The position numbers and the translations under genes were made by a program. This document shows positions 3,681-31,426 of a stretch of DNA of 64,000 nucleotides, one piece after another. The stretch spans positions 5,509-69,508 of the forward strand of contig WRBM01000005.1 in assembly GCA_009784525.1 (NCBI GenBank), given 5' to 3'. Within the stretch, counting starts at the first letter, position 1. The number at the start of each line of letters is the position of its first letter. This stretch comes from Erysipelotrichales bacterium (GTDB taxonomy: Bacteria > Bacillota_I > Bacilli_A > Acholeplasmatales > WRBM01). The notes beneath the pieces are model-generated. The model was not told where the DNA came from and searched no databases. It worked only from the letters and a program-made list of their open reading frames with translations.

Positions 3681-6600
3681 CTATCCAACGTCCACCGCGC
3701 TGTAAATCGTGTTAATGACATTAATTAAAATGTGAACCTTGTCGCCAAAGTATTCAAGCACATCGTAGCTTTCAAATGGCGGAGTGTTGATTATGTCCTC
3801 TGGCGTGATGTTACCATTTTTCTGAACATAACCGATAACTTGGCGAATGAATTCTATTTGATGTGAATTTAGCTCGTTATTATCACTTAAATAATCGCCG
3901 AATTTTTGCTGAATGGCTTCTTGTGATAATCCAATCAAGCTACGAACAAAAATCGCTAAGTTCTCTTGTTCTGTTGTTTTGTGATAATCACTCTTTGTGC
4001 CAAGTTCTTCCCACAAAATTCTTTCAAGTTCTTTCATGTCCTCTACGTAGATTTTTTCAAGATTCTTAATTTTCTGAATAACTGGCAAGTCTTGATTCTC
4101 TTGCAAGTAATCAATCACCTTCTTTTTGTAAGTTCTTATGTCAACGAATCCGCCACTAACTTCATCCCTTTCAATCACTTCATCGAAAAAATCCGTGTCA
4201 AATTTTTGTCCAGTTAAATTATCTCTCACAAATTGCATTAAGTCACGCAATGCTTTTCTCATTACCTCAATGCCTTCTGTCGTTGCATTTTCCCAAAATA
4301 CTTGTGTTTTAATGCTCTTTAATTCTTCCTTTTTACTTGCAACTTGTGGAATAGTAGTTTTAGTTAGAAGCACTGTTGCAATTTCACAAATTTCTTTAAC
4401 CGCTTTTATTGACCTTCCATTTTTAAGTGCAGAACCATTTACAATAATTGAAAGTTCAATAAAAAGCATTTTTGCATCAAATATTAGAGCACTGTCATCA
4501 GGCTCGTCTTGTTTATCAATAAGCGGAGCAATGTGTTTATTTAGTTCAGCAAGTGCAAGTGGACTAATATAATCCCATGTTTTAATCTCACTATATCTAT
4601 CAACAAACATCATCACCTTTCGCACACTGATGCTTTCCGACTGTTTTTTAATATCAGCTACCGCTTTATGTAACTGCGTTTTAAGTTCATCATAATAAGC
4701 TTTTTCAAACTCGCTTTCTTGAAATCTAAGATCTTGAAGTTCGACTAATATTTTTCCTCTTAATTCAAACAAACGGCGACTTAAAGATTTCTGTTCTGTT
4801 TCGCTGGTTTTATTTTGCTCCACCGCAAAACGCTCGAAGTTGGCGAAATAGTCAAAAATAGTGAAGAATTCCTTATCTGCACCTTTTCCGAACAAGTCTT
4901 TACAAAGCCTAGTGCCGCGCCCAATCATTTGAATGAATTTGATTTTTGATTTAACAGACTTGAAGAAAACAAGGTTAACAACCTCAGGCACATCAACACC
5001 AGTATCAAGCATACCAACTGAAACAGCGATTCTAAAGTCTGGATTTTCGCCAAACTTTACTACCAAGTCATCCGCATATTTCACACCACTAACAACAAGT
5101 TGGCAAAAAGTGTCTGAATATGTTTTATACATTTTATAAAACTGCTCGACAATCATTTGTGCATGTTTTTGGTTGTAAGCAAAAATAATAGTCTTTCCTA
5201 AAAGCTGCCCACTGTTTACATGAATGCCGTTTTTCATCAAGTCTTCAATCACACGCTTACATGTATCCTTGTTGTAAACACTCTTAAAAATTGCACTAGC
5301 ATCAATTTTAGTCGGAACTTGTTTCTGCTCTGACTCTAAAATAAAGTCATCTTCATCGTCATCTTCGCCAAGACCAAAGATTCTATCATACTCTTCTCGA
5401 TCTTGCTTGTTAAGTTTATCTCTATCAATACCATCAGTCAAAATTTTTGTAGAGCGATGACTTACTTTCCAAGTCACTAGAAAGCCATCGTCAGTCGCTT
5501 CTTCAAGAGTATATTGGTCTGTTGGCTCGCCGTTGTCGCATTCAAAAATATCATACGTGTTTTTTGCAATTTCGCTTCTTGGTGTAGCGGTAAGTCCGAC
5601 AAGCAAACTATCAAAATAATCAAATATAGCGCCATACTTATTAAAAATACTTCTGTGGGCTTCATCGATAATAATCAAGTCGAATCGTCCTGTGCTAAAT
5701 TCTTTATCTTCACCATCAACATAGTTAATCATTGTTTGGTAAGTTGAAAACATCAGCCTTGCGTTCATATTAGGCTTTGCGTTGCCCGAAAGCTCTTCAA
5801 CAGTTTGGTTTGGTAAAAGTTTGGCAAAATTCTTTTTTGCCTGCCTAACAAGCGCGGTTCTGTCGGCCAAAAATAAAACATTTTTAACCCAGTTATTTTT
5901 GGTTAATATGTCAACTAGCGAAATAGCAACTCTTGTCTTTCCAGTTCCAGTTGCCATAACAAGAAGCGCTTTTCTATCGTTTTTATTAAAACGCTCAGCA
6001 ACCGATTTTATCACTTGCTTTTGGTATCCGCGATTTGTGATGTTGTCGTCAATTGCAAGGTTTGAGATATCTCCACGCTTTCTGCGAGTGATTAATAAAC
6101 CAAGTTCTTCTGCCGTGTGATATGCAAAAACTTGACGCGCTGGATAAAGTCCATCCATAATCCACAAGTCATAGCCATTGGTGTAATAAATAACTGGGCG
6201 AACGCCATACTTCTTTTCTAAGCAATCTGCGTAAAGCGATGCTTGGTGCTTGCCATTTTCTACTTTTTCGCTTGTCTTCTTTGCTTCAACAACAGCAAGT
6301 GGCTTGCCATCTGCGCCAAACAAAACATAATCACAAAAACCAATGCCATTATTGTTTGGCATGCCTTCTAGTTCAATTTCGATGCAAGCTTTGAGTGGTT
6401 GGATTAAATTTGGCTTTTCAAGTACTTCCCAGCCCGCTTCTTTAAGATATGTATCAATATAAATTTTGCGAGTGTTTGTTTCGCTCATATATGGCTGCAC
6501 AGCAACACTACCACGAGCAATTAAATCTTCTAGAACTGTTATATTAGCTTCGGCAAGCCTCTTTTGTTTATCGCTCACCTTTTCGCCGTGTTCTATTTTA

Positions 6601-6767
6601 CTTGTAATGATTCGCACAAAGTTGAGTCCTTTATGGAGTTCATCATTATTAACAAATTCTTTAACCTCTTGCAAATTTAAAAGTTGTAATAAAGAGACAG
6701 TTTTGGAAACCGTAACATTTTTATTCTTGCAAATTTCAAGCAGTAATCTTTCTAGTTTTTCTTTCAT
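3681..6767 (-). CDS. hsdR: type I restriction enzyme R subunit
   Basis: 1028 aa. Helicase motif I MATGTGKTRVA and motif II IIIDEAHRS. Sits last in an M-S-R arrangement with a 4-nt overlap to hsdS. Confidence 0.9.
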   Translation of the reverse strand: MKEKLERLLLEICKNKNVTVSKTVSLLQLLNLQEVKEFVNNDELHKGLNFVRIITSKIEHGEKVSDKQKRLAEANITVLEDLIARGSVAVQPYMSETNTRKIYIDTYLKEAGWEVLEKPNLIQPLKACIEIELEGMPNNNGIGFCDYVLFGADGKPLAVVEAKKTSEKVENGKHQASLYADCLEKKYGVRPVIYYTNGYDLWIMDGLYPARQVFAYHTAEELGLLITRRKRGDISNLAIDDNITNRGYQKQVIKSVAERFNKNDRKALLVMATGTGKTRVAISLVDILTKNNWVKNVLFLADRTALVRQAKKNFAKLLPNQTVEELSGNAKPNMNARLMFSTYQTMINYVDGEDKEFSTGRFDLIIIDEAHRSIFNKYGAIFDYFDSLLVGLTATPRSEIAKNTYDIFECDNGEPTDQYTLEEATDDGFLVTWKVSHRSTKILTDGIDRDKLNKQDREEYDRIFGLGEDDDEDDFILESEQKQVPTKIDASAIFKSVYNKDTCKRVIEDLMKNGIHVNSGQLLGKTIIFAYNQKHAQMIVEQFYKMYKTYSDTFCQLVVSGVKYADDLVVKFGENPDFRIAVSVGMLDTGVDVPEVVNLVFFKSVKSKIKFIQMIGRGTRLCKDLFGKGADKEFFTIFDYFANFERFAVEQNKTSETEQKSLSRRLFELRGKILVELQDLRFQESEFEKAYYDELKTQLHKAVADIKKQSESISVRKVMMFVDRYSEIKTWDYISPLALAELNKHIAPLIDKQDEPDDSALIFDAKMLFIELSIIVNGSALKNGRSIKAVKEICEIATVLLTKTTIPQVASKKEELKSIKTQVFWENATTEGIEVMRKALRDLMQFVRDNLTGQKFDTDFFDEVIERDEVSGGFVDIRTYKKKVIDYLQENQDLPVIQKIKNLEKIYVEDMKELERILWEELGTKSDYHKTTEQENLAIFVRSLIGLSQEAIQQKFGDYLSDNNELNSHQIEFIRQVIGYVQKNGNITPEDIINTPPFESYDVLEYFGDKVHILINVINTIYSAVDVG

Positions 6768-7867
6768 TCCTGCCCTCCTTCATCTTCAAAATACTTTTGC
6801 ATCAGTGCCTTGTATAATGTTTCGGTTTGATTTAATTGGGTTTTAAGGGTTGCCTTCGCTTGTTCGGTTTGAGTGACGAAAGTGGCGAATTCTTTTTGTA
6901 AATCAATAGGTGGTGTAATTACATTAAGCTCTCGGAGTATCTGCAAGTTAATGTTTTTCTGTGCAGACTCTGGAGCTTGTTCTTCCAGCATTTTCTGAAA
7001 GAACGAAAACCAATAATGCATAAAAATTGAATTTGTTTTTTCATTTGCAGTAAATCCTACAATACTATCAGGAAAACAAGCGTCAAAACCCAATATCGCA
7101 GTTTTTGCTATATTTGCCGCAATAGTTATACAGAGGGTGCCTTTTTTCCATACTTTACTTTGTTTCAGACCAATTTCAGAATATGTAGCCTTATGCTCAG
7201 TTATATATAATTCAGCCGAAGCAACTTCCCCTGTTTGAATTAGTGGATACTCACCACCAAGCAATTCAGGTGCATTTCTAGGTCGATGTTTTGATACACC
7301 CCTATCAAGTTTCCCAAGTTCGGGTTCGATTTTGTTCATCGCCCAGCCCATATCATTTGCCACAGGACACCCAAACATCTCATTAAATTTGCTTTTCACA
7401 AGTTCGCCCAAAAATTTGTATTGCTGTTTTTGTTTTGCTAAGATACTGCATACCGCGTCCAATTCCGCGGCAATGCGTTGTTGTTCAGGGAGCGTAGGCA
7501 ACCATAGTTCCCTATTTTTATAATCTTTAAAGTAAATATGTGGTATTGTTGCACCTGTAAATTTTTTGCCCAAATCAAAATATTGCAAGGCATAAAATAA
7601 ATAATTTAAATGAATATTTTCTTTTGGGAGCAAATACTGCATAGTGCTTATAATAGATGATTGAGCAGGCAAAAGCATTACTCGCCCAACGCCAGCACCA
7701 TCTTTAACAATACCAATATAAGGTTTTTCTTGCTTATAGAAGTCAACTGTTTTAATTAATCCACTTGCCCCATAAATTGGATGATTACCAGAAATTTTTT
7801 CCAAATTTTTCTGCATCAAATTCGAAGACTGAGCCATGCAAATATCATCTAGTTTCACCTTAATCAT
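6764..7867 (-). CDS. hsdS: type I restriction-modification specificity subunit
   Basis: 367 aa between hsdM and hsdR. Two target-recognition-like halves separated by a conserved helical spacer (LPEQQRIAAELD...). 4-nt overlaps on both sides. Confidence 0.85.
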   Translation of the reverse strand: MIKVKLDDICMAQSSNLMQKNLEKISGNHPIYGASGLIKTVDFYKQEKPYIGIVKDGAGVGRVMLLPAQSSIISTMQYLLPKENIHLNYLFYALQYFDLGKKFTGATIPHIYFKDYKNRELWLPTLPEQQRIAAELDAVCSILAKQKQQYKFLGELVKSKFNEMFGCPVANDMGWAMNKIEPELGKLDRGVSKHRPRNAPELLGGEYPLIQTGEVASAELYITEHKATYSEIGLKQSKVWKKGTLCITIAANIAKTAILGFDACFPDSIVGFTANEKTNSIFMHYWFSFFQKMLEEQAPESAQKNINLQILRELNVITPPIDLQKEFATFVTQTEQAKATLKTQLNQTETLYKALMQKYFEDEGGQE

Positions 7868-9369
7868 CGGACTCCATCACCAAGCTTCTCCAACTCTTCC
7901 GCAATCTCTTTGTGTAACTTTTTAATCTCTGCTAAAATATTTTTTGGTGATTCAAAAACCTCTTTCACATATTCAGTCTTTTTATATTTATTGATTGAAA
8001 GATCGTAGCCATTATCGACTATCTCTTGTTTGCTTACAAAAAAGCTTTGGTCAGTGCGCTTTCGACCTTCTTCGTCTTTTAAATTGTTAAATCTTGCAAT
8101 GATATCTGGAATATCGTTTTGCTTAACTTCTGCACGTTTGTCATCAAGACTATATCCATCAGCCTTCATGCCATAAAACCAAACTTTGTCAGTGCCACCT
8201 GCATCTGTTTTGGTAAAGATAAGTATTGCAGTTGAAACCCCAGCATACGGCTTAAATACGCCGCTTGGCATTGATATAACAGCACGCAAGGCTTGCTTGT
8301 CTACAATCTCTTGTCTAATTGATTTGTGAGCAGCAGAACTTCCAAACAATACGCCATCTGGCACGATGGTCGCACTGCGTCCACCAACTTCTAGCATTTT
8401 TGTTATTACCGCCAAAAATAGCAGTTCTGTCTTTTTGGTTTTGCATAAAGCCAGAACGTCTTTACTTACCGCTTCAAAATCTAGACTTCCAGTAAAAGGC
8501 GGATTTGCTAAGATAAGGCTATATTTATTTCGCTCTTCGTTTTCATCACTTAAACTATCTTGGTATTTTATATTTGGGTTTTCAACGCCGTGAAGCATCA
8601 TATTCATCGCACCGATACGAAGCATTGTCGGGTCGGTATCAAACCCAGAGAAACTATTGTTTTGAAATCTTTCAATATTTTCTTTTATAAGTAGGTCTTC
8701 TTTTTGATTCTCCGCGATATAACTTGCACTACTTGCAATAAAGCCAGCGCTCCCCATCGCCGGGTCACAGATGAGGTCATTAATCGTCGGCTTCATAAGA
8801 CTTACCATCATATCGATTATGTGGCGTGGAGTGCGGAACTGTCCGTTCTCACCGCTTGATGCAATTTTGTTAAGCAAATACTCATACACATCGCCCATGC
8901 TGTCTTTATCTGTCATATCAAGCGCATCAAGCCCGTCAATAACCTTAACTAAAATGCGCGGTGTAGGAATCATAAAAATTGAATCTTTCATATACCTTGC
9001 AAAAGCCGTATCTTTACCGCCACTGAGGTTTTTCATAAATGGAAATATATAATCTTTCATGCGCAAAAACATTTTACTCGGCTCTTCGTTTTTAAAGTTC
9101 TGCCAGCGAAGATCCTTATAGTCAATTTTAAGCCCAAGCTCTTTGTCAACTACGCATTCACCATCGCCAAACACTCTACCCTTTATGCTAGCGGCTGTAA
9201 GTCCGATTGCCGAAGCCGATGCTTCCTTTTTTGTTTGGTTATCGTCAAGCAGCTTTATAAACATGAGGTATGTTATCTGCTCCATAACAGATAGCGGATT
9301 TGTAAGACCACCGGTCCAAAAAGTTTCCCACACGCTGTCGATTTTGTTTTTAATTTCGCCTGTTATCAT
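7864..9369 (-). CDS. hsdM: type I restriction-modification N6-adenine DNA methyltransferase subunit
   Basis: SAM-binding motif CDPAMGSAGF and catalytic LANPPF (NPPF) motif. HsdM-type N-terminal domain. Confidence 0.9.
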   Translation of the reverse strand: MITGEIKNKIDSVWETFWTGGLTNPLSVMEQITYLMFIKLLDDNQTKKEASASAIGLTAASIKGRVFGDGECVVDKELGLKIDYKDLRWQNFKNEEPSKMFLRMKDYIFPFMKNLSGGKDTAFARYMKDSIFMIPTPRILVKVIDGLDALDMTDKDSMGDVYEYLLNKIASSGENGQFRTPRHIIDMMVSLMKPTINDLICDPAMGSAGFIASSASYIAENQKEDLLIKENIERFQNNSFSGFDTDPTMLRIGAMNMMLHGVENPNIKYQDSLSDENEERNKYSLILANPPFTGSLDFEAVSKDVLALCKTKKTELLFLAVITKMLEVGGRSATIVPDGVLFGSSAAHKSIRQEIVDKQALRAVISMPSGVFKPYAGVSTAILIFTKTDAGGTDKVWFYGMKADGYSLDDKRAEVKQNDIPDIIARFNNLKDEEGRKRTDQSFFVSKQEIVDNGYDLSINKYKKTEYVKEVFESPKNILAEIKKLHKEIAEELEKLGDGVR

Positions 9370-10433
9370 TTTGCTTCCCCCTTATTTGTTCTCACATAAG
9401 CCGAATTTTTGCCTGTGCCAACCACTTTAATATAACCATCTTTTACAAGCGCATTAAGCGCTAATTTAATTGTTGCTTCACTGACAAATGGGAGCTGCTC
9501 TGCAATTTCCTTTTTGCTTATTTTTCCGATTCTGCTATCTATAACTCTCTTAACTTGATCTTGCTTGCTTGCGCCGTCTTTTACAACGCTCACAACCCTT
9601 TCGTCAAACTCACGGTATGCCATATATAAAATTTGCAAGATATATTTGATAAATGGAAGCGGATTGTTTTTGCTTTCATGCCAACCATCATCACTTTGCC
9701 TTAAGGATTTATAATAGTCTTGCTTTGTTTCCCAAATAATTCGCTCAATTGAAATATACTTCCCGACCACAAAGCCGCTTTTATATAAAAGCAATAGCGC
9801 CAAAAGCCTGCTCATCCTGCCATTACCATCGTTAAATGGGTGAACGCATAAAAAATCACGAATCACTATTGGAATCAAAATTAGCGGATCTATATATTCG
9901 TTAGCGAGCGCTTTCGCATATTGTTCGCAAATGTCTGCAATTGCGTCGGCCGTTTCATAAGGCTTCAGCGGTTCAAATAAAGTGTTAACTATTTCACCGT
10001 CAGCATTCTTCTCTACAATAACGTTGTCAACGTTTTTATATCTACCTGCAAATGCAAGCGATGTGAATTTAAGTAAATCTCTGTGTAGCTGCAAAATATA
10101 GCTCGATGTAAATGGAATGTGTTCATAGTTATTGTGGATTGTATTTAACACATCTCTGTAACCAGCAATTTCTTCTTCATCTCTATTTAGAGGTTTACTT
10201 TTGCGCTTAAGTAACGCTGTGATTCTTTCTGCCGTTGTCACGATACCTTCTATTTTATTACTAGCTTCAGTGCTCTGCACTCTTGCAACTTCAACAAGTG
10301 TCGAAAGAATCTCTGGCTCTTTTTCCAGATAGTTTCCTTGTTCACCTTTCTTTTCATATATTTTAGTAATCAGCGAAATCGCTTCACTGTCTAATTTTAT
10401 CTCTTTGTACTTTTCGTAGTTGAAAATCTTCAC
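9366..10433 (-). CDS. Fic-family protein (class II, with C-terminal winged-helix-like domain)
   Basis: Active-site motif HPFNDGNGRMSR. N-terminal inhibitory-helix motif SNKIEG, i.e. (S/T)xxxE(G/N). GTG start 8 nt after GGAGAG. 4-nt overlap with hsdM. Confidence 0.85.
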   Translation of the reverse strand: MKIFNYEKYKEIKLDSEAISLITKIYEKKGEQGNYLEKEPEILSTLVEVARVQSTEASNKIEGIVTTAERITALLKRKSKPLNRDEEEIAGYRDVLNTIHNNYEHIPFTSSYILQLHRDLLKFTSLAFAGRYKNVDNVIVEKNADGEIVNTLFEPLKPYETADAIADICEQYAKALANEYIDPLILIPIVIRDFLCVHPFNDGNGRMSRLLALLLLYKSGFVVGKYISIERIIWETKQDYYKSLRQSDDGWHESKNNPLPFIKYILQILYMAYREFDERVVSVVKDGASKQDQVKRVIDSRIGKISKKEIAEQLPFVSEATIKLALNALVKDGYIKVVGTGKNSAYVRTNKGEAK

Positions 10434-21384: not shown

Positions 21385-22270
21385 CTAACTGTTATTCCAG
21401 CGACTTCTAAACCTTAAATTAAAATTTACATTTTCATAACTGAACTGAGGATTATTACCGAAAATACCTGAACCAGATTGTCTTCTTAATCTCATAGTCC
21501 CTACAAAATTAACATAGAAATCATCTGGCATTCTTTCAGAATAATTTGTCATTTCAAAAACAACTCCTGGTTCAAAAGTAAATTGATTTGGTGTCATTTG
21601 AGGAAGACTATAGTGCCAAGTTGATTGAGAATTAGTCATAGTTACATTTGACAGAAAATTTTTATTAAATCTAACAACTCGATCTAAATCAATATTTGTA
21701 TAATGTGGTTGTCCAGCAAGTCCAACAGGCATAAATCCTGTGATCATTGATCTTCCCATTTCCACCCCAGGAGTAAGCATTGATCTTAATGTAATATTAG
21801 TTGGATTAGCAACTGGAAAAACATCGTGAACGAGCGGAACACCACCAAATCTCCATTCACTTAAATCCCATATATAATCAACAACTTGCTCAAGGTTGAT
21901 GGAAACATTGCCACTTAAGTTCTCCCAATTAATAAATTCTGTTCTGCCCTGATTTCTTAATGCTTGGCCGGGAGTAAATGTTACACTTGATTTTAGTATA
22001 TAAATACTACTTCTTGATTGTGGAATGATATATCTATAAACTCGAACACCAACAGTTACAGCTCCAAAAGGAGCCAATTCCCTTGTATTGCTTGTTGCCA
22101 TAACAAGCGATCTTAAAGGGATTTGCGCATTTAACGGCATAATTTCTACAGAATCATTTTCCTTATCACTATCATTGAAATATGATTTCTCGCTGACATC
22201 TAAGCTATTAAGCAAGGAGAGTTGTTATAATTGAAACACCAAATATTAACCAAAAAAGTTTTTTCATCAT
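21385..22270 (-). pseudogene. secreted beta-rich hypothetical protein, split by a frameshift from its signal peptide
   Basis: A 20-codon ORF (22208-22270, MMKKLFWLIFGVSIITTLLA-stop) has an extended -10 (TGCTATAAT, 22295-22303) and an AGG RBS. It is offset by one nt from the 276-aa body (21385-22215), which begins only at an in-frame TTG. Confidence 0.6.
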
Positions 22271-22359: not shown

Positions 22360-22398
22360 TGAAAAATGCCACCTCAAATTAAAAGGGGCTAGCATTTT
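22360..22398 (-). terminator. rho-independent terminator ending the RHS-locus transcript
   Basis: Minus strand: AATGCTA(g)CC...GGTGGCATT bulged hairpin followed by TTTTTC. It precedes the separate promoter of the secreted-protein gene. Confidence 0.45.
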
Positions 22399-22524
22399 TC
22401 CATAATTTATAATGATTTTCTGATTTCTATTTTTCAAATGTACAAAGTAAACGCTAGTCTCTGACCTTTCACACCGTTTTGCATCCAGCTCCAGCGGTTC
22501 AGTCACTAAAGGAAGACTGCTTAA

Positions 22525-22624
22525 TCTAACCATACGCAGCTTAAGGATAACTCAACGCAAATGTTTATGTATATAATTATCTCGATTGTGTAACTATTAT
22601 GCACTAAACTAGCTGGATTCGCAA
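22525..22624 (-). pseudogene. decayed orphan copy of the RHS core-to-toxin junction
   Basis: About 100 nt align by eye to 23729-23835 inside the RHS gene, in the same orientation. Roughly 85% identity with an 8-nt and a 1-nt indel and an in-frame TAA. Confidence 0.75.
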
Positions 22625-22714
22625 AATTTTATTGATTTTCAAAAAAACGATAAAAAAAGCAAAACTCTTGAATGACTAAAAATCATTGAGAATCTTGCTT
22701 AATTTATTATTTAG

Positions 22715-23134
22715 CTAGAATTTCCTAATTGTCTTCTTAAGTTTAAGCATGTACAGCTGTCCTATTATGCCTATTAGAATCATAAAAATTACGAAAATAA
22801 TAATTAAAATTACTCTTGATAGCCTTATAAAACTTTCCTGATTAAAGACATAAGCTATATTACTAATTAAAGAAGAAATAATTAAAAAATGCGCAACTAA
22901 GTTTAGCCAAAAAATTGGCTTTGTAATTTCTCCTGTTTTTATTTCATAATAACTGAAAAAATATTTTGTAATTTTAAGCTTATAAATATTTTCATCAAAA
23001 TATTTTTCTTTATAAATTTTATCAAAAGCGCGTAATCCAGCATAAGTCAATACAGTAAATATTGCCCAAAATGCGAATCCATTTAAAATTGACTGTTGAA
23101 CAGGTGTAAATGATGACGCATATATTAATTCCAT
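22715..23134 (-). CDS. multi-pass membrane protein, putative immunity protein for the RHS C-terminal toxin
   Basis: 139 aa with 3-4 hydrophobic helices. Starts 15 nt after the RHS stop, with an AAAGGAAG RBS. This is the position typical of cognate immunity genes. Confidence 0.55.
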   Translation of the reverse strand: MELIYASSFTPVQQSILNGFAFWAIFTVLTYAGLRAFDKIYKEKYFDENIYKLKITKYFFSYYEIKTGEITKPIFWLNLVAHFLIISSLISNIAYVFNQESFIRLSRVILIIIFVIFMILIGIIGQLYMLKLKKTIRKF

Positions 23135-23149
23135 TTTTTTCTTCCTTTA

Positions 23150-26100
23150 CTATTTCAATTGACTTAGTATAAATTCCTTATGAGTTGATAATCCTATTAT
23201 ACTAAGCCCAAAAATTAATCCTTCTGTAGGCCATGGCTGACCTACTACCCCAAATATCGCTGATATCCCAACTTTACGCCAATCAATGGTTCCATTAAAT
23301 ACTGGTTGTGATCCTATTGAAACAGCACCATACGTTCCTGTTTTTCCAATTACTTTATACACGAGCCCAATCTTCGCTAACCCTATCGCCTTTGCGCCTG
23401 TAGTTGTCGCGACTGTAGTGACTACCCCAATAGTAAATCCATCTACAGCACCTTCAAGACTTCTTTTATTAAGAACACCAAATCCTGCGCTTATTCCACC
23501 AACAATTAATGAAGCTGTATAAACATATTTTGTGCTCTTATAAGCCCAGATAGCTTTTGTTGATAAACTGCCAATTGCCGTGAAGCTAACTGCACTTTTT
23601 TTGGCTAGTAACACAGCGACTCCGGCTTTACCTAATGTCAAAACATTTAGTGTCTTAAAGGCGATTATTGCTCCTACTCCAATCGCAAATCTAGTTGCTA
23701 GTGGAAGTCCTCTATACCATCCCATAAGTCTAACCATACGCGCTTGAAAACGACTCAACGCAAATGTTTCTGTATATAATGGCATTGTTGTCTCGATTGT
23801 GTAACTATTATACACTAAACTAACTGGATTCGCAACAGTTAATAGATAAGAATTTAAACTATTTGGTAAAATTGCCCTGTCAACCATTTCTTCTGGTGCT
23901 TCTGGGGAGATAAATTGCCGCATTATTGGCGAATAATATCTGCCTTCTATAAAATAAAGCTGAGTTTCTAAATCCAGATATTGGGATTTCCAGCGAATAG
24001 GGTTTCTGATTCCAATATGATTGCGATGGTTTTGAAGCGTGAGTTCATGGCTAGAACCTGATCTTACTTCTAAAACCCTAATAGTATTCCCCCAGGCATC
24101 ATACTCATACCTGATTATATGATTGTTATTCCCGCTCCTAAGCCCAATCACATTATTCAAGGTATCTTTAATAAAGTAATAAATAAACTCCTCAGAATCA
24201 TGAATAAGTCCACTCTCAAAACCTCTTGCGACAAAGCCAATAATTCCATTATAATCATAAATAAACCTTATATACCTTGTAGCGTTTTCCCGTTCTACTA
24301 ATAGCTTATTCCCATCATAAACATATTCGATTGTTTGATCTGGAAATTCAGCGGTTTTTTTGAATCTGATGCCTTGACTATTATAATGATATGTAAACGT
24401 CTGATTTCCTAAAAAACCAACATTATAACATCTTTTTAACAAGCTTCCTCTTTCCCATTCCATAGACCTTGACATATAATTAGTACAATTCCCTAACCTA
24501 TCATAATCAAAATTTAATGTTTGCTGGGGTCGTGTAATGCTCATTAATCTTCCGGCAATATAATTGTAGTTTATAGTAATTCCATTAAAGATTGGATTAC
24601 CATTATCTAGCCTAGTATCACCATCAAAGTCTTCTTCTTTAAGGCTTCCGTCAGTATTATATCTAAATCTTCTAAATTCTATATTCCTGCCAATTGTCTG
24701 TGATACTTCTGAGATGACTCTACTAGCTCTATCATAATTGTATAATAAGATTTGGTCGCCAACCTGCATTGCATTTGTATGCCAAGTAATCAAAACAGAT
24801 TGGATATTTCCGCGAGTATCAATCCAGTTATCTGAAAGATATCTGAAATCATTAGGTCTATTTGGTGTAACGCCGACGATTTGTCTTAATATTTCTGTTC
24901 CATTATGATATTGATAAGTTTCATGAAATCTTCTTTCAGATGATGTAATACCATGACGGGTACGCTCGAGGAAAACTTTTTCAGAAAATCTGCCAAAACG
25001 ATCATAACCATAATAAACATTAAGCAAGTCACGGCCATGTGGAGAATTTGGGTCAGTTAGGCTTTCTTCTGTCTCTGTAACCCTTGGCGCAAACAGATGG
25101 TTATCACTTAATATGATTCTTGTTAGCGATAAATTATGAATTCCCAAAGTCTGATGCATGCGATATTCTGTCCCGCGAGGATTAGCCCAAATGCTTACAT
25201 AAGGGCTTCTATATTCAGTAAGCTCATTTCCGTCACTATAAAAAAACGTATAACGAGCTTCTTCAAATGGATCTAAGTATTGGCTAATTTCTGAGACAAT
25301 TTCACTTTCTCTGATATTATTCTGTCGCATAAAAATGGTTTCTGAGCCATCTTCAATTGTACTGCTTACCCTACCATATTTGTCCAAAAAAATATTTGTC
25401 GTATCTATATCACTTGCGGTACGATATTTCATTGCTGTAACAATACTACTAGAGCGATCTATATGCATTTCCGTTATCGGACTGGAAACATTTGCTCTAA
25501 TTATGTTTGTGCGTTCAACATCGCCAAACTCGTTATATTGATATGCATAGCTGTAATTGCTTCCTTCTGACTGCAAGTTACTGAGTCTTCCAACATTTTC
25601 ATATTGAAGGATGTTCCTGCCATTAACATTATCTCTAATGTTATCTAAGCGATCAAACATTGAATTATAAGTACTATTAAGTTGATAATTACTAGTCATA
25701 TCTCTAGTACCATTAGCGTTGAAGCCAAAAAATTCACTTACATCAGGATTACTAAAAGGCGTCAGATATCTTAATACTCTTTCTGTTAATTGACTCCTTT
25801 CCGAAGCATTTGTGGAAGCAATATTTGTTGAATAAAGAAAAGTTTCATTGCTTACTTGCGGATGGCGTGTAATCCTTGTTACATTGTTCGATTGATTATA
25901 TGTATATTCATTACGAACTTCATACTCATCTACCTCTAATCGGATGCGCCCTTGGAAATCATGTCGTTCTTCGATTTGTCTTGTAATATTGTCTTTACGG
26001 GCTACTGATAAGGTACCGATACAAGCTGGTATAATTCCGCTAGCAGGAATAAAGTTAGTTGTTATTTGCGTAACAATTTCATTATTCATCGACCGACTTT

Positions 26101-27967
26101 CAATTAAGTATTCAGCTCGATTACTTGCTAAACGAACAGGCCAACTATTTTGGTTAAAAAAGATGTATCTTGCGCTTGAGACAAGCATTTTCCACGTCCC
26201 ATCACAAGCTGACAAAATAAAATGAGCTCCAGTTCTTTTGATAAAGCTCTCATAAGTCGCTTGGATATCACTTTCTGTAAAATAGAAATCGTTATTTACC
26301 CTTATACCTCTTTCAAAAGGCGTAAAAGTATCCCAAAAGCCAATAACATCAATATTCTCTAAAATTTCTCTATGTATAACGACTTGATTATTTGGTCTTG
26401 ATTCAGTCGTTGTCAAATACATTCTCGTTCTATCACTATAAACTATTTTCATGCCTGCTATCTTAGCCATTCTACCAGCTACACCGCCAGGAAAATGGAT
26501 TAAAATTTGCTCAAGATTATGATTTGGAATTTCAACCGTAACTTCAACATACTGCCAAACTCCATTAGCCCTATTATCAATTGTACTATAAGTTCTTGTG
26601 GTCTGTCCATTTGATCTGGTTGTAACAAGAATTCGATTATTGTTTAATCTTCCTTCTAATTTCAACCAAAATCCTACCGTAAAAAAGCGACATTCAGCGA
26701 AAGTATTGCGATAACTCCTAACATTTTCAAATCTTTGGCTTAATAAACCATCATTAGCATTAGTAATATCCCAACTAGTATGAATAGAAAAGCTATTTTC
26801 ACCATTTATCATTTCCTGATCATTACCTGGATTTAACATATCTCTGCCTGGTCTTTTTAGGAGTTCTCTCAAATCTGGTCCTACTGCTTCCAATATTGAA
26901 ACTAAAAAACCATCTAAATCAAAATAGTAATTTAGATTAATGCCTTTTTCATTTGTAAGTGTCGTCCGCCAAAAATTATTATCATAAGTAAAATTAGTCT
27001 TTTGATTTTGCTCACGAATCACAAGGTCATTTCTGACTTCACCAAAAAAAGAAACATCTAATGAACCACCAACTCTGATAAGTCCTCTGTTAGTGTTTGT
27101 TGCTGAAGCAATGCCTGTTTCTATTGCTGTTATTTTGTTAATTTCTTCTCTAATCTGACTATCATAAGTAATTTTGATTGTTTCATTATCTCTTGTATCA
27201 AAAAGTCCAGCTATTCTTGAAGAATTGGAATCATAAAAGATATGGGTTATATGTTCTGAAATCCGCTTATTATCCCGTCTTTCTCTTCTTGAAATAGTTC
27301 TTAAATTGTTACTTATGTCATAATCATAATTATAGGTTAAATAAATGCGATTATTTAAAATATATCTTATTTCCACAAGCATCATTTCACTATAGTGAAA
27401 AGTAATTCTTCGCCAAGGAATTCTTGCATCACGAACTTCTGATAAAAATCCATTTATATAAATAAAATTCTTAATACTAGCCATGTTCGTCGCTGATCTC
27501 GTTTCTGTAAGATTTCCTGATAAATCAAATCTAAGTTGGTTATCAAACTCATCAGTTATAATTTGACTATCAACTAACATGTTGTCTGGACCTGTTGTTG
27601 TAAGTATCAAGTTAAGTCCAGAAACGTCAAAATACTGATAAGTATTGCCGAGATGTCCCATGTAACGGAATATATGCGAAAAACCACTTTCATCAATATA
27701 AGTATATTGAATCAGATTCCTTGTTTGGCTAGAAGATGATCTTGTTAATGTGCGTCTAAGATTAAGTTTCCAATGACCTCTAAATCCTGATAAATTGTTA
27801 GCAATAAAACTTGGATTATAGATATGGCTGACATTAATTTGGAAATCACCACTTCCAATACTTGTGGCCGGAATTTCAGCTAAAACTCTTCCAGTTCGAA
27901 CATTAACAGAAACAAACGCATTTTTTATTTCATACTTTATTCTTGTATGACCAATATGCTCTTGCAC
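23150..27967 (-). CDS. RHS / YD-repeat polymorphic toxin (1605 aa)
   Basis: Many YD repeats (YEYDAWGN, FDYDRLGN, YGYDRFGR, YQYNEFGD). RHS-core end PIRWKSQYLDLETQLYFIEGRYYSPIMRQFISPEAP, followed by a 244-aa unrelated tail. GTG start 7 nt after GGAGG. Confidence 0.9.
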   Translation of the reverse strand: MQEHIGHTRIKYEIKNAFVSVNVRTGRVLAEIPATSIGSGDFQINVSHIYNPSFIANNLSGFRGHWKLNLRRTLTRSSSSQTRNLIQYTYIDESGFSHIFRYMGHLGNTYQYFDVSGLNLILTTTGPDNMLVDSQIITDEFDNQLRFDLSGNLTETRSATNMASIKNFIYINGFLSEVRDARIPWRRITFHYSEMMLVEIRYILNNRIYLTYNYDYDISNNLRTISRRERRDNKRISEHITHIFYDSNSSRIAGLFDTRDNETIKITYDSQIREEINKITAIETGIASATNTNRGLIRVGGSLDVSFFGEVRNDLVIREQNQKTNFTYDNNFWRTTLTNEKGINLNYYFDLDGFLVSILEAVGPDLRELLKRPGRDMLNPGNDQEMINGENSFSIHTSWDITNANDGLLSQRFENVRSYRNTFAECRFFTVGFWLKLEGRLNNNRILVTTRSNGQTTRTYSTIDNRANGVWQYVEVTVEIPNHNLEQILIHFPGGVAGRMAKIAGMKIVYSDRTRMYLTTTESRPNNQVVIHREILENIDVIGFWDTFTPFERGIRVNNDFYFTESDIQATYESFIKRTGAHFILSACDGTWKMLVSSARYIFFNQNSWPVRLASNRAEYLIESRSMNNEIVTQITTNFIPASGIIPACIGTLSVARKDNITRQIEERHDFQGRIRLEVDEYEVRNEYTYNQSNNVTRITRHPQVSNETFLYSTNIASTNASERSQLTERVLRYLTPFSNPDVSEFFGFNANGTRDMTSNYQLNSTYNSMFDRLDNIRDNVNGRNILQYENVGRLSNLQSEGSNYSYAYQYNEFGDVERTNIIRANVSSPITEMHIDRSSSIVTAMKYRTASDIDTTNIFLDKYGRVSSTIEDGSETIFMRQNNIRESEIVSEISQYLDPFEEARYTFFYSDGNELTEYRSPYVSIWANPRGTEYRMHQTLGIHNLSLTRIILSDNHLFAPRVTETEESLTDPNSPHGRDLLNVYYGYDRFGRFSEKVFLERTRHGITSSERRFHETYQYHNGTEILRQIVGVTPNRPNDFRYLSDNWIDTRGNIQSVLITWHTNAMQVGDQILLYNYDRASRVISEVSQTIGRNIEFRRFRYNTDGSLKEEDFDGDTRLDNGNPIFNGITINYNYIAGRLMSITRPQQTLNFDYDRLGNCTNYMSRSMEWERGSLLKRCYNVGFLGNQTFTYHYNSQGIRFKKTAEFPDQTIEYVYDGNKLLVERENATRYIRFIYDYNGIIGFVARGFESGLIHDSEEFIYYFIKDTLNNVIGLRSGNNNHIIRYEYDAWGNTIRVLEVRSGSSHELTLQNHRNHIGIRNPIRWKSQYLDLETQLYFIEGRYYSPIMRQFISPEAPEEMVDRAILPNSLNSYLLTVANPVSLVYNSYTIETTMPLYTETFALSRFQARMVRLMGWYRGLPLATRFAIGVGAIIAFKTLNVLTLGKAGVAVLLAKKSAVSFTAIGSLSTKAIWAYKSTKYVYTASLIVGGISAGFGVLNKRSLEGAVDGFTIGVVTTVATTTGAKAIGLAKIGLVYKVIGKTGTYGAVSIGSQPVFNGTIDWRKVGISAIFGVVGQPWPTEGLIFGLSIIGLSTHKEFILSQLK
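23729..23835 (-). repeat. intragenic copy of the direct repeat shared with the orphan fragment
   Basis: Encodes ANPVSLVYNSYTIETTMPLYTETFALSRFQARMVR, about 17 aa after the RHS-core end. Partner copy at 22525-22624. Confidence 0.75.
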
Positions 27968-27969
27968 AT

Positions 27970-29331
27970 TTATTCCTCCATTACTTTCTTGACTACTTCC
28001 GAGTCTTTTAATGATTTCATTTCTGTTTCACCAGTAGCTAAAATTTTTCTACTGCCTCGCCCTGTTATGAAAACTACATCATTATACTCGCATTCAATAA
28101 TCGCTTTTTTAATCGCTTCTTGACGATTTAAAATGATTTCAGAGGGAATTTTGTTATCTAAATAAGTTTGGAGTTCTTCACAAATTGCAAGTGCATCCTC
28201 AGCTGCTGAATCATTTTCCGTCAAATAAATAAAATCTGCCAAAGATTTAATATAATCCATAGCTTGTTTTCGAATTTTAGCTCTTTGACTAATATAGAAA
28301 TCGGACTTAAATATCGGCTCCCAACCTTTAAAGCCAGTCCCAGAAGCGCCTGTTACTAAGCGAATTTTATTGATTTCGCCATTTAACTGGTAATTTTTTA
28401 AATAATCCAAAGCTGGATCAAGAAACATTCCAACAATTACTTTGCAATTTTCAAATAAAAAAACTTCTTCTCTGCCTTGAACCTGAACATCTTGAATAAC
28501 ATTTAAAAATGCCTCAGTTTCAAAAATGTTTAAAGCTGCTAAAACTGTTATCGCACAGATAATGTTAAGGGCATTATAAGGCATAATCATTTGGGTAGCG
28601 AATTTAAAGAACTCTCCCTTGACTCTTAAATGAATTTCCATACCTTCTAAACTGTGCTCACAAAAATGCATAATTGTATCAAATTTTGTGTAATCTATAT
28701 TCTTTTGTTCAGCAGTATAAACAGAACCAAAAGTGAAACTTCTTTTATTATTAATATTTAATAACTCCTTAAGTTCCTCTTTTGCAATATCTCCTGTCGC
28801 ACCAAAAACATTTACAGACACTTCTTCTAGTGATGCATTTCTAAAAAAGGATTTTATTGAATTTACATATGTATCACTAGGTTCTTGATCTATATGGTGA
28901 TTCTTAAAAATATTAGTTAAGACTCGCACCGTAAAAGGAATGTCTTTTGTTATACCATTTACAATAGATGATTCGTTTACCTCGAGCACGAGGTAATCAG
29001 GTTGGAAAATTTCTGCTTCATAAATGATTCTTAAAAGCACACCTAAATTTAAAAGTGGTGTTTCACTTCCTTCACCAGGTTTTGAATTACCAGCTGGAGA
29101 ATAAATCTCTGCACTTGAATATAACATAGATTTAAAACCTTTAGCTCTTAAATATTCATGAATTACTTTTGCAGTTGTAGTTTTACCTCGGCTTCCAACG
29201 ATACCGATAATTTTAATTTTGTCTAAATTATTAAGTGTTTGCTCATTAAGTTGTTTTGGACTAAATTTGCCATTATTTTCTAAATCCGCAAAACTTTTTT
29301 GCATTTCAATTGGTATTAAATCAACTGGCAA
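27970..29331 (-). CDS. Mur ligase family protein lacking the N-terminal UDP-binding domain
   Basis: P-loop GIVGSRGKTTT, LEVNESS and LTNIFKNHHID (compare EVSSH and TN..DH.D), GREE, and a C-terminal TENDSAAED / ITGRGS region (compare T.DNPR.ED / AGKGHE). The track start is TTG. A better-placed ATT start lies at 29370-29373. Confidence 0.7.
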   Translation of the reverse strand: MPVDLIPIEMQKSFADLENNGKFSPKQLNEQTLNNLDKIKIIGIVGSRGKTTTAKVIHEYLRAKGFKSMLYSSAEIYSPAGNSKPGEGSETPLLNLGVLLRIIYEAEIFQPDYLVLEVNESSIVNGITKDIPFTVRVLTNIFKNHHIDQEPSDTYVNSIKSFFRNASLEEVSVNVFGATGDIAKEELKELLNINNKRSFTFGSVYTAEQKNIDYTKFDTIMHFCEHSLEGMEIHLRVKGEFFKFATQMIMPYNALNIICAITVLAALNIFETEAFLNVIQDVQVQGREEVFLFENCKVIVGMFLDPALDYLKNYQLNGEINKIRLVTGASGTGFKGWEPIFKSDFYISQRAKIRKQAMDYIKSLADFIYLTENDSAAEDALAICEELQTYLDNKIPSEIILNRQEAIKKAIIECEYNDVVFITGRGSRKILATGETEMKSLKDSEVVKKVMEE

Positions 29332-29402
29332 TTGACTTAATAATTTTTCTTTTAATTTTGATAATTTAATAATTATCGTCTCCTTTGTTAAAATTTAGTT
29401 AT

Positions 29403-29900
29403 TTAATCAATTGGCTGAGTAGATGGACATTCATAAGTGAAATTTATAAAGCTTTGCGTAATTAATCGTGATTCAGTCGAATCAGTATAAAAGCGAAGCG
29501 GAAAAGTGAAATAAATTTCTGCAACAACTGTCTTATCATTATGTAAATCAAGTTGCTCGGTTACAGTAATAAACAGATTTCTTCCTTCTATTCTTGATTC
29601 AAATTTAACTCTAGCCGATGAACCTGTAGTAGGCACCCATACGGGAAAAGAACCTAGTGGAACAATAATTTCTGTTGATTGAAGCGTACCATCGACTGAT
29701 CTAGTCCAATCAACGTGAATCCCATGCTTAAATACTTCTGTTAACTCAAATCCGAAAAGGTTTGAAACACGATCAGAAGCTTCCAGTAATTTTATGACTA
29801 GCTCGTTTAGAGCCGAAGCGGTTAAAACATCGCCGGTTCTAAATTGATTTCTGTTGTTTAATAAACTAGTTGTTTCACTAGCATTTGTATCAAATTTCAT
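29403..29900 (-). CDS. hypothetical protein (165 aa; 168 aa from the upstream ATG at 29909)
   Basis: The ORF-track start at 29909 abuts the GAAGGG RBS. The second ATG (29900, MKFDTNASETT...) has proper spacing. The N-terminus is paralogous to the 52-aa ORF upstream. Confidence 0.6.
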   Translation of the reverse strand: MKFDTNASETTSLLNNRNQFRTGDVLTASALNELVIKLLEASDRVSNLFGFELTEVFKHGIHVDWTRSVDGTLQSTEIIVPLGSFPVWVPTTGSSARVKFESRIEGRNLFITVTEQLDLHNDKTVVAEIYFTFPLRFYTDSTESRLITQSFINFTYECPSTQPID

Positions 29901-29922
29901 TTTTATCATCCCTTCTTTTTAG

Positions 29923-30081
29923 TTAAACCAAATTATTTATAATCTGTAACAAATCCGAAATCGATATTATTTCACTGACAATTGCGTTTAATGTCGATGA
30001 TGTTAAAATATCAGTTTCTTGAAACATGTTTCCATTATTAATCCGATTTGCTAAAGCAGTGTTAGTTGTATTCCATCTCAT
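29923..30081 (-). CDS. unlisted small ORF (52 aa), paralog of the N-terminus of the next gene
   Basis: AAAAGGAGAT RBS 9 nt before the ATG. Translation MRWNTTNTALANRINNGNMFQETDILTSSTLNAIVSEIISISDLLQIINNLV aligns with MKFDTNASETTSLLNNRNQFRTGDVLTASALNELVIKLLEA. Confidence 0.55.
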   Translation of the reverse strand: MRWNTTNTALANRINNGNMFQETDILTSSTLNAIVSEIISISDLLQIINNLV

Positions 30082-30104
30082 AATAAAGTTATCTCCTTTT
30101 TATT

Positions 30105-30119
30105 TAGTCCAATGGACTA
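30105..30119. promoter_or_regulatory. perfect 15-bp palindrome upstream of the first gene of the RHS locus
   Basis: TAGTCCA-A-TGGACTA, about 24 nt upstream of the 52-aa ORF start codon (just upstream of its RBS). A one-nt centre rules out an RNA hairpin, so a dimeric DNA-binding site is more likely. Confidence 0.4.
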
Positions 30120-30289
30120 TTTTACCTATTAAATTAGGCATAGCTCTTATCATTTATATGCTAGTTATTATTGTTTCGGAACAAATTAACTGCTTTTAAA
30201 AATTTCATTGCCGATTTTTAAATATTATAAATAAAAAAACTCAAACATTTTGCCTGAGTTTTTTTAAGTGTTTATATATTTAATTAGCA

Positions 30290-31426
30290 TTATTTTGTTT
30301 GAAAACTAATTTTCTTTAACAAAACAACTGCTTCACAAGCAATTGCCTTGCCTTCGCCAATACTACCTAACTTTTCAGTTGTTGTTGCTTTTACACTGAC
30401 ATTTTCAATATCTGTCTCTAAACATTTTGCAATATTTTTGCGCATCAAATCAATGTATTCACGCATCTTAGGCTTTTGAGCGCTAATCATTAAATCAATA
30501 TTATTTATTTCATAACCTTTTTCTTTTATCAACTTATAAGCTGATTGAACAATTATCTTTGAATCAAGATCTTTATTCTCTTTAGCATCATCGGGAAAAT
30601 GACTGCCAATATCGCCTAAGCTTAAAGCCCCAAGTAAACTTCCCGCAACAACATGATATAAACAATCCGCATCACTATGACCTAATAATCCCTTATCAAA
30701 AGGAATTTCTACTCCACCCAATATTAACTTACGCCTCTCAACTAACCGATGAATATCCCAGGAATGACCGATTCTAAACATATTACTCTCCCTATTTTTT
30801 AGTACTTCTAAATCACTTTGATGAGTTATCTTAATGTTTTTTGTCTGATGCAAAATTGCTTTAATATTTATGCTAGGATAATACTTTTCTATGAGACTAA
30901 TATCATCGGTTCCACAATAGTTATCTTTTAAGGCTTTTTCATGACAATCTTTGATTAGTGCTGTTTTAAATGCTTGTGGTGTTTCTGCCTGGATTAAATC
31001 ATTGCGATTCAAAGTAATAAATTGCTTACCTTCTTTAAGTTTGATCGTATCAGTAACATTTTTTCCAACAAAGGCAACTTCAGATATTTTAACGGCTTCC
31101 ATCGTTTCTTTTATTAATTGTTCACTAATAAAGGGCCTGGCTGCGTCATGAATCAAAACATATTCACTTCTAATCGCTTTTAAGCCATTTCTGACTGAAT
31201 CAGCTCGTTCTTTACCGCCTTTTATAACTGTTAAGTCCGTTACTTCTACTATTTTATCATAATCACTAGGACTAGCCACAATTATAACTTCTTTGATTCC
31301 TGCCTGAATAAATTTTTTTGCACAGACTAAAAATAAAGGTTGATTGTCTATTTCTAGAAAAACCTTATTATAGCCAAGAGCTACTCTTGAGCCAGAACCG
31401 GCAGCCATTATCAAAACACTAAACAT
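30290..31426 (-). CDS. ispDF: bifunctional IspD/IspF (MEP cytidylyltransferase / MEcPP synthase)
   Basis: N-terminal IMAAGSGSRV (IspD) and C-terminal HSDADCLYHV...GDIG (IspF) in one 378-aa ORF. Confidence 0.9.
   Translation of the reverse strand: MFSVLIMAAGSGSRVALGYNKVFLEIDNQPLFLVCAKKFIQAGIKEVIIVASPSDYDKIVEVTDLTVIKGGKERADSVRNGLKAIRSEYVLIHDAARPFISEQLIKETMEAVKISEVAFVGKNVTDTIKLKEGKQFITLNRNDLIQAETPQAFKTALIKDCHEKALKDNYCGTDDISLIEKYYPSINIKAILHQTKNIKITHQSDLEVLKNRESNMFRIGHSWDIHRLVERRKLILGGVEIPFDKGLLGHSDADCLYHVVAGSLLGALSLGDIGSHFPDDAKENKDLDSKIIVQSAYKLIKEKGYEINNIDLMISAQKPKMREYIDLMRKNIAKCLETDIENVSVKATTTEKLGSIGEGKAIACEAVVLLKKISFQTK

Follow-up and report, generated by a model that had tools for sequence, protein, structure and literature searches.

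The subject of this work is a minus-strand gene cassette in a stretch of 64,000 nucleotides (nt) from an Erysipelotrichales bacterium (GTDB lineage Bacteria; Bacillota_I; Bacilli_A; Acholeplasmatales; WRBM01), namely positions 5,509 to 69,508 of contig WRBM01000005.1 in assembly GCA_009784525.1; this whole stretch is called the window. The cassette joins a giant RHS polymorphic toxin to a Mur-type ligase and a small fibre-like protein, and represents an RHS toxin system with an apparently undescribed accessory module. Judged from a recurrent fibre-ligase-RHS neighbourhood and from Rhs profile matches, the association is a conserved cassette and not a local accident. According to the reading favoured here, in which we place moderate confidence, the ligase would act on the terminal aspartate (Asp) of the fibre-like protein, the toxin would be released through holins or by lysis, and a membrane protein of 139 amino acids (aa) would provide immunity. 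A more specific version is possible, although we hold it to be doubtful: the Mur-fold enzyme might join the invariant Asp of a phage-derived binding protein to an amine of the RHS cocoon or of the envelope, giving a ligase-assembled, holin-released particle.

The cassette and its RHS toxin

The cassette lies between ispDF (30290-31426) and a CBS-domain gene/yutD/nifU block. An earlier note, made from the sequence letters, had described a run of minus-strand genes that includes a multi-transmembrane gene and a decayed orphan tip, and all of these were recovered by open reading frame (ORF) calls and colinear matches. The parts are as follows:

29923-30081, minus strand: 52-aa ORF, the N-terminal module of the fibre-like family (F2) alone
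29403-29909, minus strand: fibre-like protein F2, 168-aa ORF (165 aa if started at the second ATG, 29900)
27970-29331, minus strand, extending to 29373 if the ATT start is used: Mur-ligase-like ORF, 453 aa from TTG 29331 (Pfam, NCBIfam)
23150-27967, minus strand: RHS protein, 1605 aa (TIGR03696 and family profile)
27758-27913, minus strand: plug-type motif of the RHS shell, residues 19-70 (VSVNVRTGRV...IYNPS...WKLN; alignment of 37 members)
23816-24103, minus strand: RHS repeat-associated core domain, residues 1289-1384 (TIGR03696)
23153-23797, minus strand: putative C-terminal toxin domain, residues 1391-1605 (Gly-rich, hydrophobic)
22715-23134, minus strand: 139-aa membrane protein, putative immunity protein (position right after the toxin, hydrophobicity profile)
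22501-22622, minus strand: decayed orphan RHS core/toxin junction (three colinear frame-shifted matches)

Homologues of the ligase form more than 120 clusters at E < 1e-91, whose named sources are Erysipelotrichales, Acholeplasmatales and metagenome-assembled genomes labelled 'Bacilli'; the nearest of them carry the Erysipelotrichales label from their sources. A family-profile scan of one genome per GTDB species yielded 40 loci, often two or three in a genome, with hosts including Anaeroplasma, Haploplasma modicum ATCC 29102 (L040), 'Staphylococcus sp. CAG:324', and uncultured Bacilli and Mollicutes. Neighbouring genes were compared by ORF calling and clustering around these loci and around further loci fetched by exact protein look-up. 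The gene that follows the ligase encodes one RHS family (1474-1917 aa) in 40 of the 42 loci having a downstream ORF, mostly at a distance of -20 to +18 nt, and the gene that precedes it belongs to F2 or the related family F13 in 39 loci. The earlier proposal that the ligase and the small genes belong with the RHS gene is supported. In the closest clade the order is fibre, ligase, RHS, with a holin-like gene between ligase and RHS in L050 and L051, and the order fibre-ligase-RHS is kept across sequences 33-58% identical and in unrelated genomic contexts.

By the tests of shell, core, polymorphic tip and orphan tip, all applied to sequence, the giant protein of the window is an RHS polymorphic toxin. 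Searched as a single sequence, its sole match is to TIGR03696 (RHS core), at 33.0 bits against a cut-off of 32.5, and it has no match to Pfam RHS_repeat. A profile built from 14 family members, the window protein included, matches solved structures of Rhs proteins (best 8h8a, E = 1e-44; also 7q97 and Tse15), of teneurins and of TcB-TcC, and the family consensus displays YxYDxxGN repeats. The plug-type motif of the shell, VN..TGR...SIG...YNS...GWKLN, is alignable over 37 members, while Pfam DUF6531 matches in relatives are faint or weak. No Pfam family was found in any cassette protein other than the ligase.

The junction of the ligase and RHS genes reads ...ATGGAGGAATAA-AT-GTG, with a GGAGG ribosome-binding site (RBS) inside the last ligase codons, as the earlier note had seen, and the GTG lies 2 nt past the stop, not the 3 nt first given. 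In the RHS frame a stop codon occurs 21 codons upstream of this GTG with no start codon between, so the upstream extension that might have supplied a signal peptide or a trafficking domain is impossible. RHS homologues begin at the same place, about 20 residues ahead of the plug-type motif. The earlier note had the protein open with shell-type sequence; it starts 18 residues before the 'VSVNVRTGRV' quoted there. The N-terminus has no hydrophobic segment and no Pfam LXG or PAAR match, in line with the original view that it lacks a Sec signal or trafficking domain. The peptide 'SKINQ' is frequent in RHS N-termini of the family and is not kept in the window clade. Members at seven loci (L032, L046, L047, L035, L037, L041 and L043) carry an extra region of ~175-200 aa before the plug, which matches no Pfam family.

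The last 215 residues of the window RHS contain 13% Gly, 22 small-xxx-small motifs and two segments resembling transmembrane (TM) helices; this domain, which matches no Pfam family, is a putative membrane-inserting toxin. Tips vary among relatives, many being Gly/Ala-rich alike and others carrying HExxH, deaminase-like or PT-HINT tips. The 139-aa protein has three hydrophobic segments, one of them long enough for two helices, and no family match in Pfam, NCBIfam or PHROGs. The orphan tip matches RHS residues 1379-1425 in different frames, one of them broken by a stop codon. It is visible only with a sensitive short-word search; at standard tblastn thresholds the window shows no extra RHS fragments.

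The junction between core and tip also differs within the family. Eleven relatives carry the DPxG motif as NNPIMYxDPxGH, and PT-HINT is found in a third group. The window junction NPVSLVYNSYTIE reappears in four relatives as NLVYNTYTYE, and the alternative junction NP..LVYN(S/T)YT.E (window 23797-23840, residues ~1376-1391) is common to the distant L016, L021, L025 and L042. This pattern suggests that cleavage in the subgroup follows a different mechanism or is absent.

The Mur-type ligase and the acidic end of the fibre-like protein

On its domain content, the ligase is a member of the Mur ligase family and not a MurE orthologue. Pfam recognises Mur_ligase_M at 51 bits and Mur_ligase_C at 30.5 bits, and each score exceeds its threshold. 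The nearest NCBIfam family is MurE, at 111 bits against cut-offs of 257-373 and with a match that begins at about model position 100; weak NCBIfam matches to folC and cyanophycin synthetase were also obtained. The closest solved structure is T. maritima MurE (4bub), to which the profile aligns from residue 102 on, that is, over domains 2 and 3. The UDP-N-acetylmuramic acid-binding domain 1 is missing, and a ligase without the N-terminal domain of MurE is not a housekeeping MurE. The earlier note had recognised that a sole MurE or MurT orthologue, placed beside ispDF in relatives without the RHS gene, would undo its proposal; what was found instead is ~24% identity to genuine MurE genes, varied contexts beside RHS genes, two to three copies in many genomes, and presence in a Mollicute. 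Mollicutes have no cell wall, and peptidoglycan synthesis is therefore an unlikely role for the ligase of H. modicum.

Mur-family enzymes activate a terminal carboxylate with ATP and then form an amide. The positions that serve this chemistry are kept in the cassette ligases: across 30 homologues (~40% identity), the P-loop G43-K50, E117/N119/E120, T139-N140-H145, G286-R287-E289 and G424-R425-G426 are invariant, and at least 90% of them keep the carbamyl-Lys position K160. Such conservation speaks for an active, ATP-dependent amide ligase with a substrate other than a UDP-linked precursor. The coding region is probably longer than first annotated. Homologues begin with MKLSKLKEKL... (MKLSKLKEKLMNQLP), and the window holds a matching peptide, IKLSKLKEKLLSQLP, in frame and 14 codons upstream of the TTG, with an RBS (AAAGGAGA) 8 nt upstream of ATT 29373. 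From this resemblance and the RBS, ATT 29373 rather than TTG 29331 is probably the true start.

An origin of the ligase as phage cargo was considered and rejected. Homologues are absent from the 2.9 million viral contigs of IMG/VR, and the phage and plasmid collections returned only distant matches (~24% identical), which annotated plasmid records name MurE.

The two small proteins upstream of the ligase were described early on as paralogues, and this proved correct: the 52-aa and 168-aa proteins share 35% identity over 43 residues (E = 7e-8). The 52-aa gene has its own RBS (AAAGGAGA), 9 nt upstream, and its product is 54% identical to an equally placed 52-aa gene in L005. For the 168-aa ORF, the second ATG (29900) is better spaced from the RBS and gives 165 aa. 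This protein is composed of an N-terminal GxxLxAxxLN module, an Ig-like (immunoglobulin-like) beta-sandwich and an unstructured tail ending ...CPSTQPID. AlphaFold, run with a 19-sequence alignment, reached a mean confidence (pLDDT) of 76.7, with helices at 31-62, the beta-sandwich at 64-160 and residues 161-168 unstructured; the single sequence gave a pLDDT of 35.

F2 members span 52-607 aa, some with repeated beta-sandwich units and some with aBig_2 Ig domains. F13 proteins have a different N-terminus and the same last strands and acidic end. Word-based searching with the 168-aa protein found only itself, and exhaustive HMMER searching found seven genuine relatives, all ending in Asp, along with one spurious low-complexity match (P0127). 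Profile searching showed that the N-terminal module (GTPLNAxxLN-type) also occurs in H-lectin/Gp53-like proteins of 154-155 aa. One of these, a 154-aa H-lectin protein, lies inside a phage tail gene cluster (Phage_Gp19, tail tube protein) with no ligase called nearby. The window cassette contains no phage structural genes, and its fibre genes lie outside any phage tail gene cluster. Only the ligase-linked proteins have the last beta-sandwich and the Asp-ended tail.

The unexpected part of the protein is its end. The last residue of the ligase-adjacent fibre protein is D in 36 of 39 loci, E in two and A in one, against a background of 13 terminal Asp residues among 331 other ORFs of the same loci (3.9%). 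Typical tails are ...PSTTPED, ...STDPID and ...SSSGD, that of the window being ...PSTQPID. In alignments (A2, A4) at 14-26% identity, the terminal Asp is one of four or five invariant columns, and in the profile search 18 of 19 fibre-type matches ended in Asp, whereas none of the four H-lectin proteins with the same N-terminal module did. The terminal codon is GAT in some genes and GAC in others, and the RBS sits past the stop codon, so the constraint acts on the protein; an overlapping RBS as the cause of the Asp codon was rejected on these grounds. The tail class also tracks the RHS N-terminus: P-x-D tails accompany 'naked' RHS proteins and ...G-D/E tails accompany those with the ~175-200-aa extension, L037 being an exception with ...TTPD beside an extended RHS. 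The co-variation holds across fibre N-terminal types and includes few independent lineages.

Release, proposed mechanism and competing explanations

The earlier note saw no visible export route, and this stands for the window; among relatives it requires refinement. Holin-like genes occur in 23 of the 30 cassettes having enough upstream sequence. The best-supported type is Phage_holin_5_2/phrog_1129 (E = 9e-16), and the other types, which are weak matches, are an XhlA-like TM-plus-coiled-coil protein and a holin_LLH-like protein. Nine loci carry a protein of ~250 aa (F6), two members of which were compared and match a sigma-70 family model over most or all of the model's length, below the cut-off. 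Among the recurrent neighbours, and in the Pfam annotation precomputed for the examined loci, no endolysin-type family was present and no spanin was recognised. Neither the large ORFs of the window nor the 10-kb flanks of relatives hold a TcA-sized partner, and the RHS protein is a single chain. The holins of the relatives point to holin-type release.

Assembly ERZ27257297 carries four fibre-ligase-RHS cassettes (that of the window, L005, L051 and L052) and a solitary ligase (L004). Its ligases are 51-58% identical to one another, and in L051 a holin_LLH-like gene stands between ligase and RHS. If these loci were paralogues of one genome, a holin might act in trans.

Under the favoured reading, the RHS shell would enclose the C-terminal, glycine-zipper-like membrane toxin in the cytoplasm. 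With ATP, the ligase would activate one carboxylate on the Asp that ends the fibre-like protein and would then link it to an amine, which could be supplied by an RHS residue, by a free amino acid or by a component of the envelope. The choice of Asp is proposed because a C-terminal Asp, like the terminal D-Glu of the MurE substrate, has two free carboxylates, and the loss of the UDP-binding domain would fit such a change of substrate. An exchangeable binding module would thereby be fitted to the toxin or serve to attach it. The particle would leave the producer through holin lesions or lysis; as the window holds no holin, release there would depend on cell lysis or on a holin supplied in trans. 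Once released, the toxin would permeabilise the membranes of neighbouring bacteria, and the downstream 139-aa membrane protein would protect the producer.

Several observations weigh against this reading. The link between ligase and fibre is a prediction from synteny and a conserved terminal residue, and the fibre protein of L008 ends in Ala. No acceptor Lys is conserved generally in the RHS N-terminal peptide of the family alignment. The canonical DPxG[LH] autoproteolysis motif is absent from the window RHS, whose junction reads ANPVSLVYNSYT, and tblastn found no homologue of the cassette holins or regulator in the window. The ligase start may be weak, for ATT 29373 could be either a rare non-canonical start or a weakened one. 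For the 168-aa protein, a Foldseek comparison of the kind that the earlier note had suggested for the accessory proteins returned only generic Ig-like, PapD-like, adhesin and phage-tail Ig matches, with no PDB E-value below 1e-3, and no specific structural relative can be claimed. Because the loci share ancestry, independent events are fewer than the counts suggest. Finally, solitary intact ligases occur upstream of rimP-nusA-infB in two metagenomes with no adjacent RHS or fibre gene (L004:10001-11371, preceded by rlmN, and L054:293-1666), 48-51% identical to the window ligase. This clade shows that the ligase can persist without adjacent partners, and its role may be in trans or independent of RHS.

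The solitary ligases also enter into an alternative that we regard as unlikely, yet worth keeping in view: the cassette would be real and the ligase would have its target elsewhere, in the RHS protein or its encapsulated toxin, or would make a small amide-linked molecule or polymer required for assembly, processing or release, with the Asp serving, for example, in docking. The adjacency and start/stop coupling of ligase and RHS are conserved at least as well as the adjacency of ligase and fibre, and Mur-family enzymes that lack domain 1 (FolC, CapB, the M domain of cyanophycin synthetase) typically use small molecules or polymers, among which the weak folC and cyanophycin synthetase matches would find their place. 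What such a target leaves unexplained is a near-invariant acidic end that occurs only in ligase-adjacent fibres and is absent from their H-lectin relatives; no other conserved carboxylate-bearing feature was found. It is improbable that the ligase homologue instead has no enzymatic role and serves the RHS particle as a structural or chaperone subunit, comparable to chloroplast PAP11. Its translational coupling suggests co-production with RHS, and PAP11, a MurE-like protein of the plastid RNA polymerase, is among the PDB matches (8w9z, 8r5o), but the P-loop Lys, the metal-binding acidic and His residues, the carbamyl-Lys and the GR.E motif vary little or not at all, as selection for catalysis predicts.

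Two further explanations draw on the phage-like surroundings of these genes. In one, which we consider quite improbable, adjacency would carry no joint function, ligase and fibre being what is left of a prophage lysis or tail module, or of a decaying peptidoglycan pathway, beside which RHS genes happened to insert. Holins, phrog_4031 proteins and serine recombinases do flank several cassettes, a phage tail gene cluster also contains the fibre N-terminal module, and unexplained 'mur group genes' have been reported in peptidoglycan-deficient Anaeroplasmataceae (PMC10868615). Nevertheless, the 2.9 million viral contigs held no ligase and phage and plasmid matches reached only ~24%, the gene order and near-touching ORFs are kept at 33-58% identity in unrelated contexts, and the genes are intact with their catalytic residues kept. 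The same tail-fibre module and holins could also be viewed as parts of an anti-phage abortive infection system, in which a fibre-like decoy or sensor, a holin and the RHS toxin kill the infected cell. This is very improbable indeed, since PADLOC gave no match, and it is competition toxins that are typically marked by polymorphic tips, cognate small genes downstream and orphan tips.

Genomic setting, known systems and significance

Three further features border the cassette or its downstream end:

21385-22215, minus strand: 276-aa ORF downstream of the orphan tip, cassette membership uncertain
30232-30266, minus strand: terminator-like hairpin, a 16-bp stem followed by a T run, just after ispDF
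30105-30119, no strand assigned: perfect palindrome TAGTCC-ATT-GGACTA, at the cassette's 5' border, directly before the RBS of the 52-aa gene

The hairpin after ispDF suggests that the cassette is a transcription unit of its own. The palindrome is possibly an operator, or could form a small hairpin; a promoter scan gave no excess of sites over shuffled sequence. Neither Pfam, NCBIfam, PHROGs nor PADLOC gave a match for the 276-aa protein, and none of 44 related loci has a counterpart of it; the gene may be an orphan immunity gene or might be unrelated cargo. Scans of the window proteins against PHROGs and PADLOC produced no useful matches.

The window comes from a metagenome contig of 70 kb. 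Outside the cassette, its ten largest ORFs have housekeeping, restriction-modification or sporulation roles. The earlier claim that no type VI secretion system (T6SS), type VII secretion system (T7SS) or Tc genes occur in the 64 kb holds for these ten, the remaining ORFs outside the annotated L001 stretch not having been scanned. SpoIIE and an EPSP-synthase-family protein (MurA- or AroA-type) are also encoded, which suggests that the host forms spores and probably has a wall. A type I restriction-modification system occupies 3681-10433 on the minus strand, with HsdR at 3681-6767 (ResIII, EcoEI_R_C, HSDR_N), HsdM at 7864-9369 (N6_Mtase, HsdM_N), a 367-aa ORF between them that is presumably HsdS, and a 355-aa ORF after them.

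Flanking genes elsewhere bear on mobility. In the upstream regions of L006, L016, L021 and L042 and the downstream regions of L013, L017, L023, L026 and L032, cassettes are flanked by a 638-aa phrog_4031 protein with a Zn_ribbon_recom fragment or by large serine recombinases. These flanks suggest that cassettes reside in or beside mobile elements.

Compared with other Rhs/YD toxins (T6SS Rhs proteins, B. subtilis WapA, TcB-TcC), the system shares the shell, core, variable tip, immunity gene and orphan tips. It differs in having no PAAR, VgrG-binding, LXG, or Sec/wall-binding N-terminus and no TcA, and in being paired with a Mur-family ligase and a fibre-like protein. Holin-dependent release of large toxins has precedents in the type 10 secretion system (T10SS) of the Yersinia entomophaga Tc toxin (PMC10847048) and in TcdE/TcdR of the Clostridioides difficile pathogenicity locus (PaLoc), where large clostridial toxins leave by a holin-type route (PMC3369941, PMC8878733). 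A large signal-less toxin is common to all of these, and the loci of relatives include phage-type holins and, in some cases, a divergent sigma-70-like regulator. Here, however, no endolysin or spanin was recognised, the window has no holin and one host is a Mollicute, while PaLoc and Tc systems lack a Mur-family ligase or fibre-like partner.

With MurE, MurT, FolC, CapB and cyanophycin synthetase, the ligase shares the Mur middle and C-terminal domains and the full set of catalytic motifs; unlike MurE, it has no UDP-binding domain and stands outside a cell-wall gene context. PafA acting with Pup, RimK acting on ribosomal protein S6, and tubulin tyrosine ligase have glutamine-synthetase-like or ATP-grasp folds. 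The proposed likeness to them would be one of logic alone, the activation of a C-terminal acidic residue, as the Mur fold differs. Phage receptor-binding and tail-fibre proteins resemble the fibre-like family in combining an N-terminal module with modular Ig-like or lectin domains, without the tail-cluster location.

Full-text literature searches combining Mur ligase or MurE with Rhs, polymorphic toxin, holin, tail fibre, Mollicutes and protein ligation did not find a description of the cassette, nor any paper linking a Mur ligase with Rhs toxins, which agrees with the initial impression of an undescribed architecture. Neither Mur ligases nor holins appear in the reference survey of polymorphic toxin systems (PMC3482391), and Rhs genes go unmentioned in two genomic studies of these lineages. 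RHS-linked ligases are present in Anaeroplasma and Haploplasma (L027, L045, L040), and some sources name them UDP-N-acetylmuramyl ligases. Part of the 'mur' gene signal in PMC10868615 may consist of such mis-annotated ligases, and RHS-linked 'mur' genes could mislead genome-based predictions of cell-wall phenotype.

For RHS toxins without T6SS, T7SS, Sec or TcA, above all those of Gram-positive and wall-less bacteria, the cassette supplies candidate parts for leaving the cell and reaching a target, in the form of holins, a dedicated ligase and a binding protein derived from phage. Should the ligase act on a protein C-terminus, Mur chemistry would extend beyond cell-wall precursors, folates and amino-acid polymers, and a new protein-ligation tool would be possible. 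A ligase-assembled particle, if it exists, would add both a new Mur-family activity and a delivery principle for RHS toxins in Bacilli, including wall-less ones. The cassette is common in Bacilli of the animal and human gut, with single protein clusters found on more than 100 contigs, and it may shape competition in gut communities.

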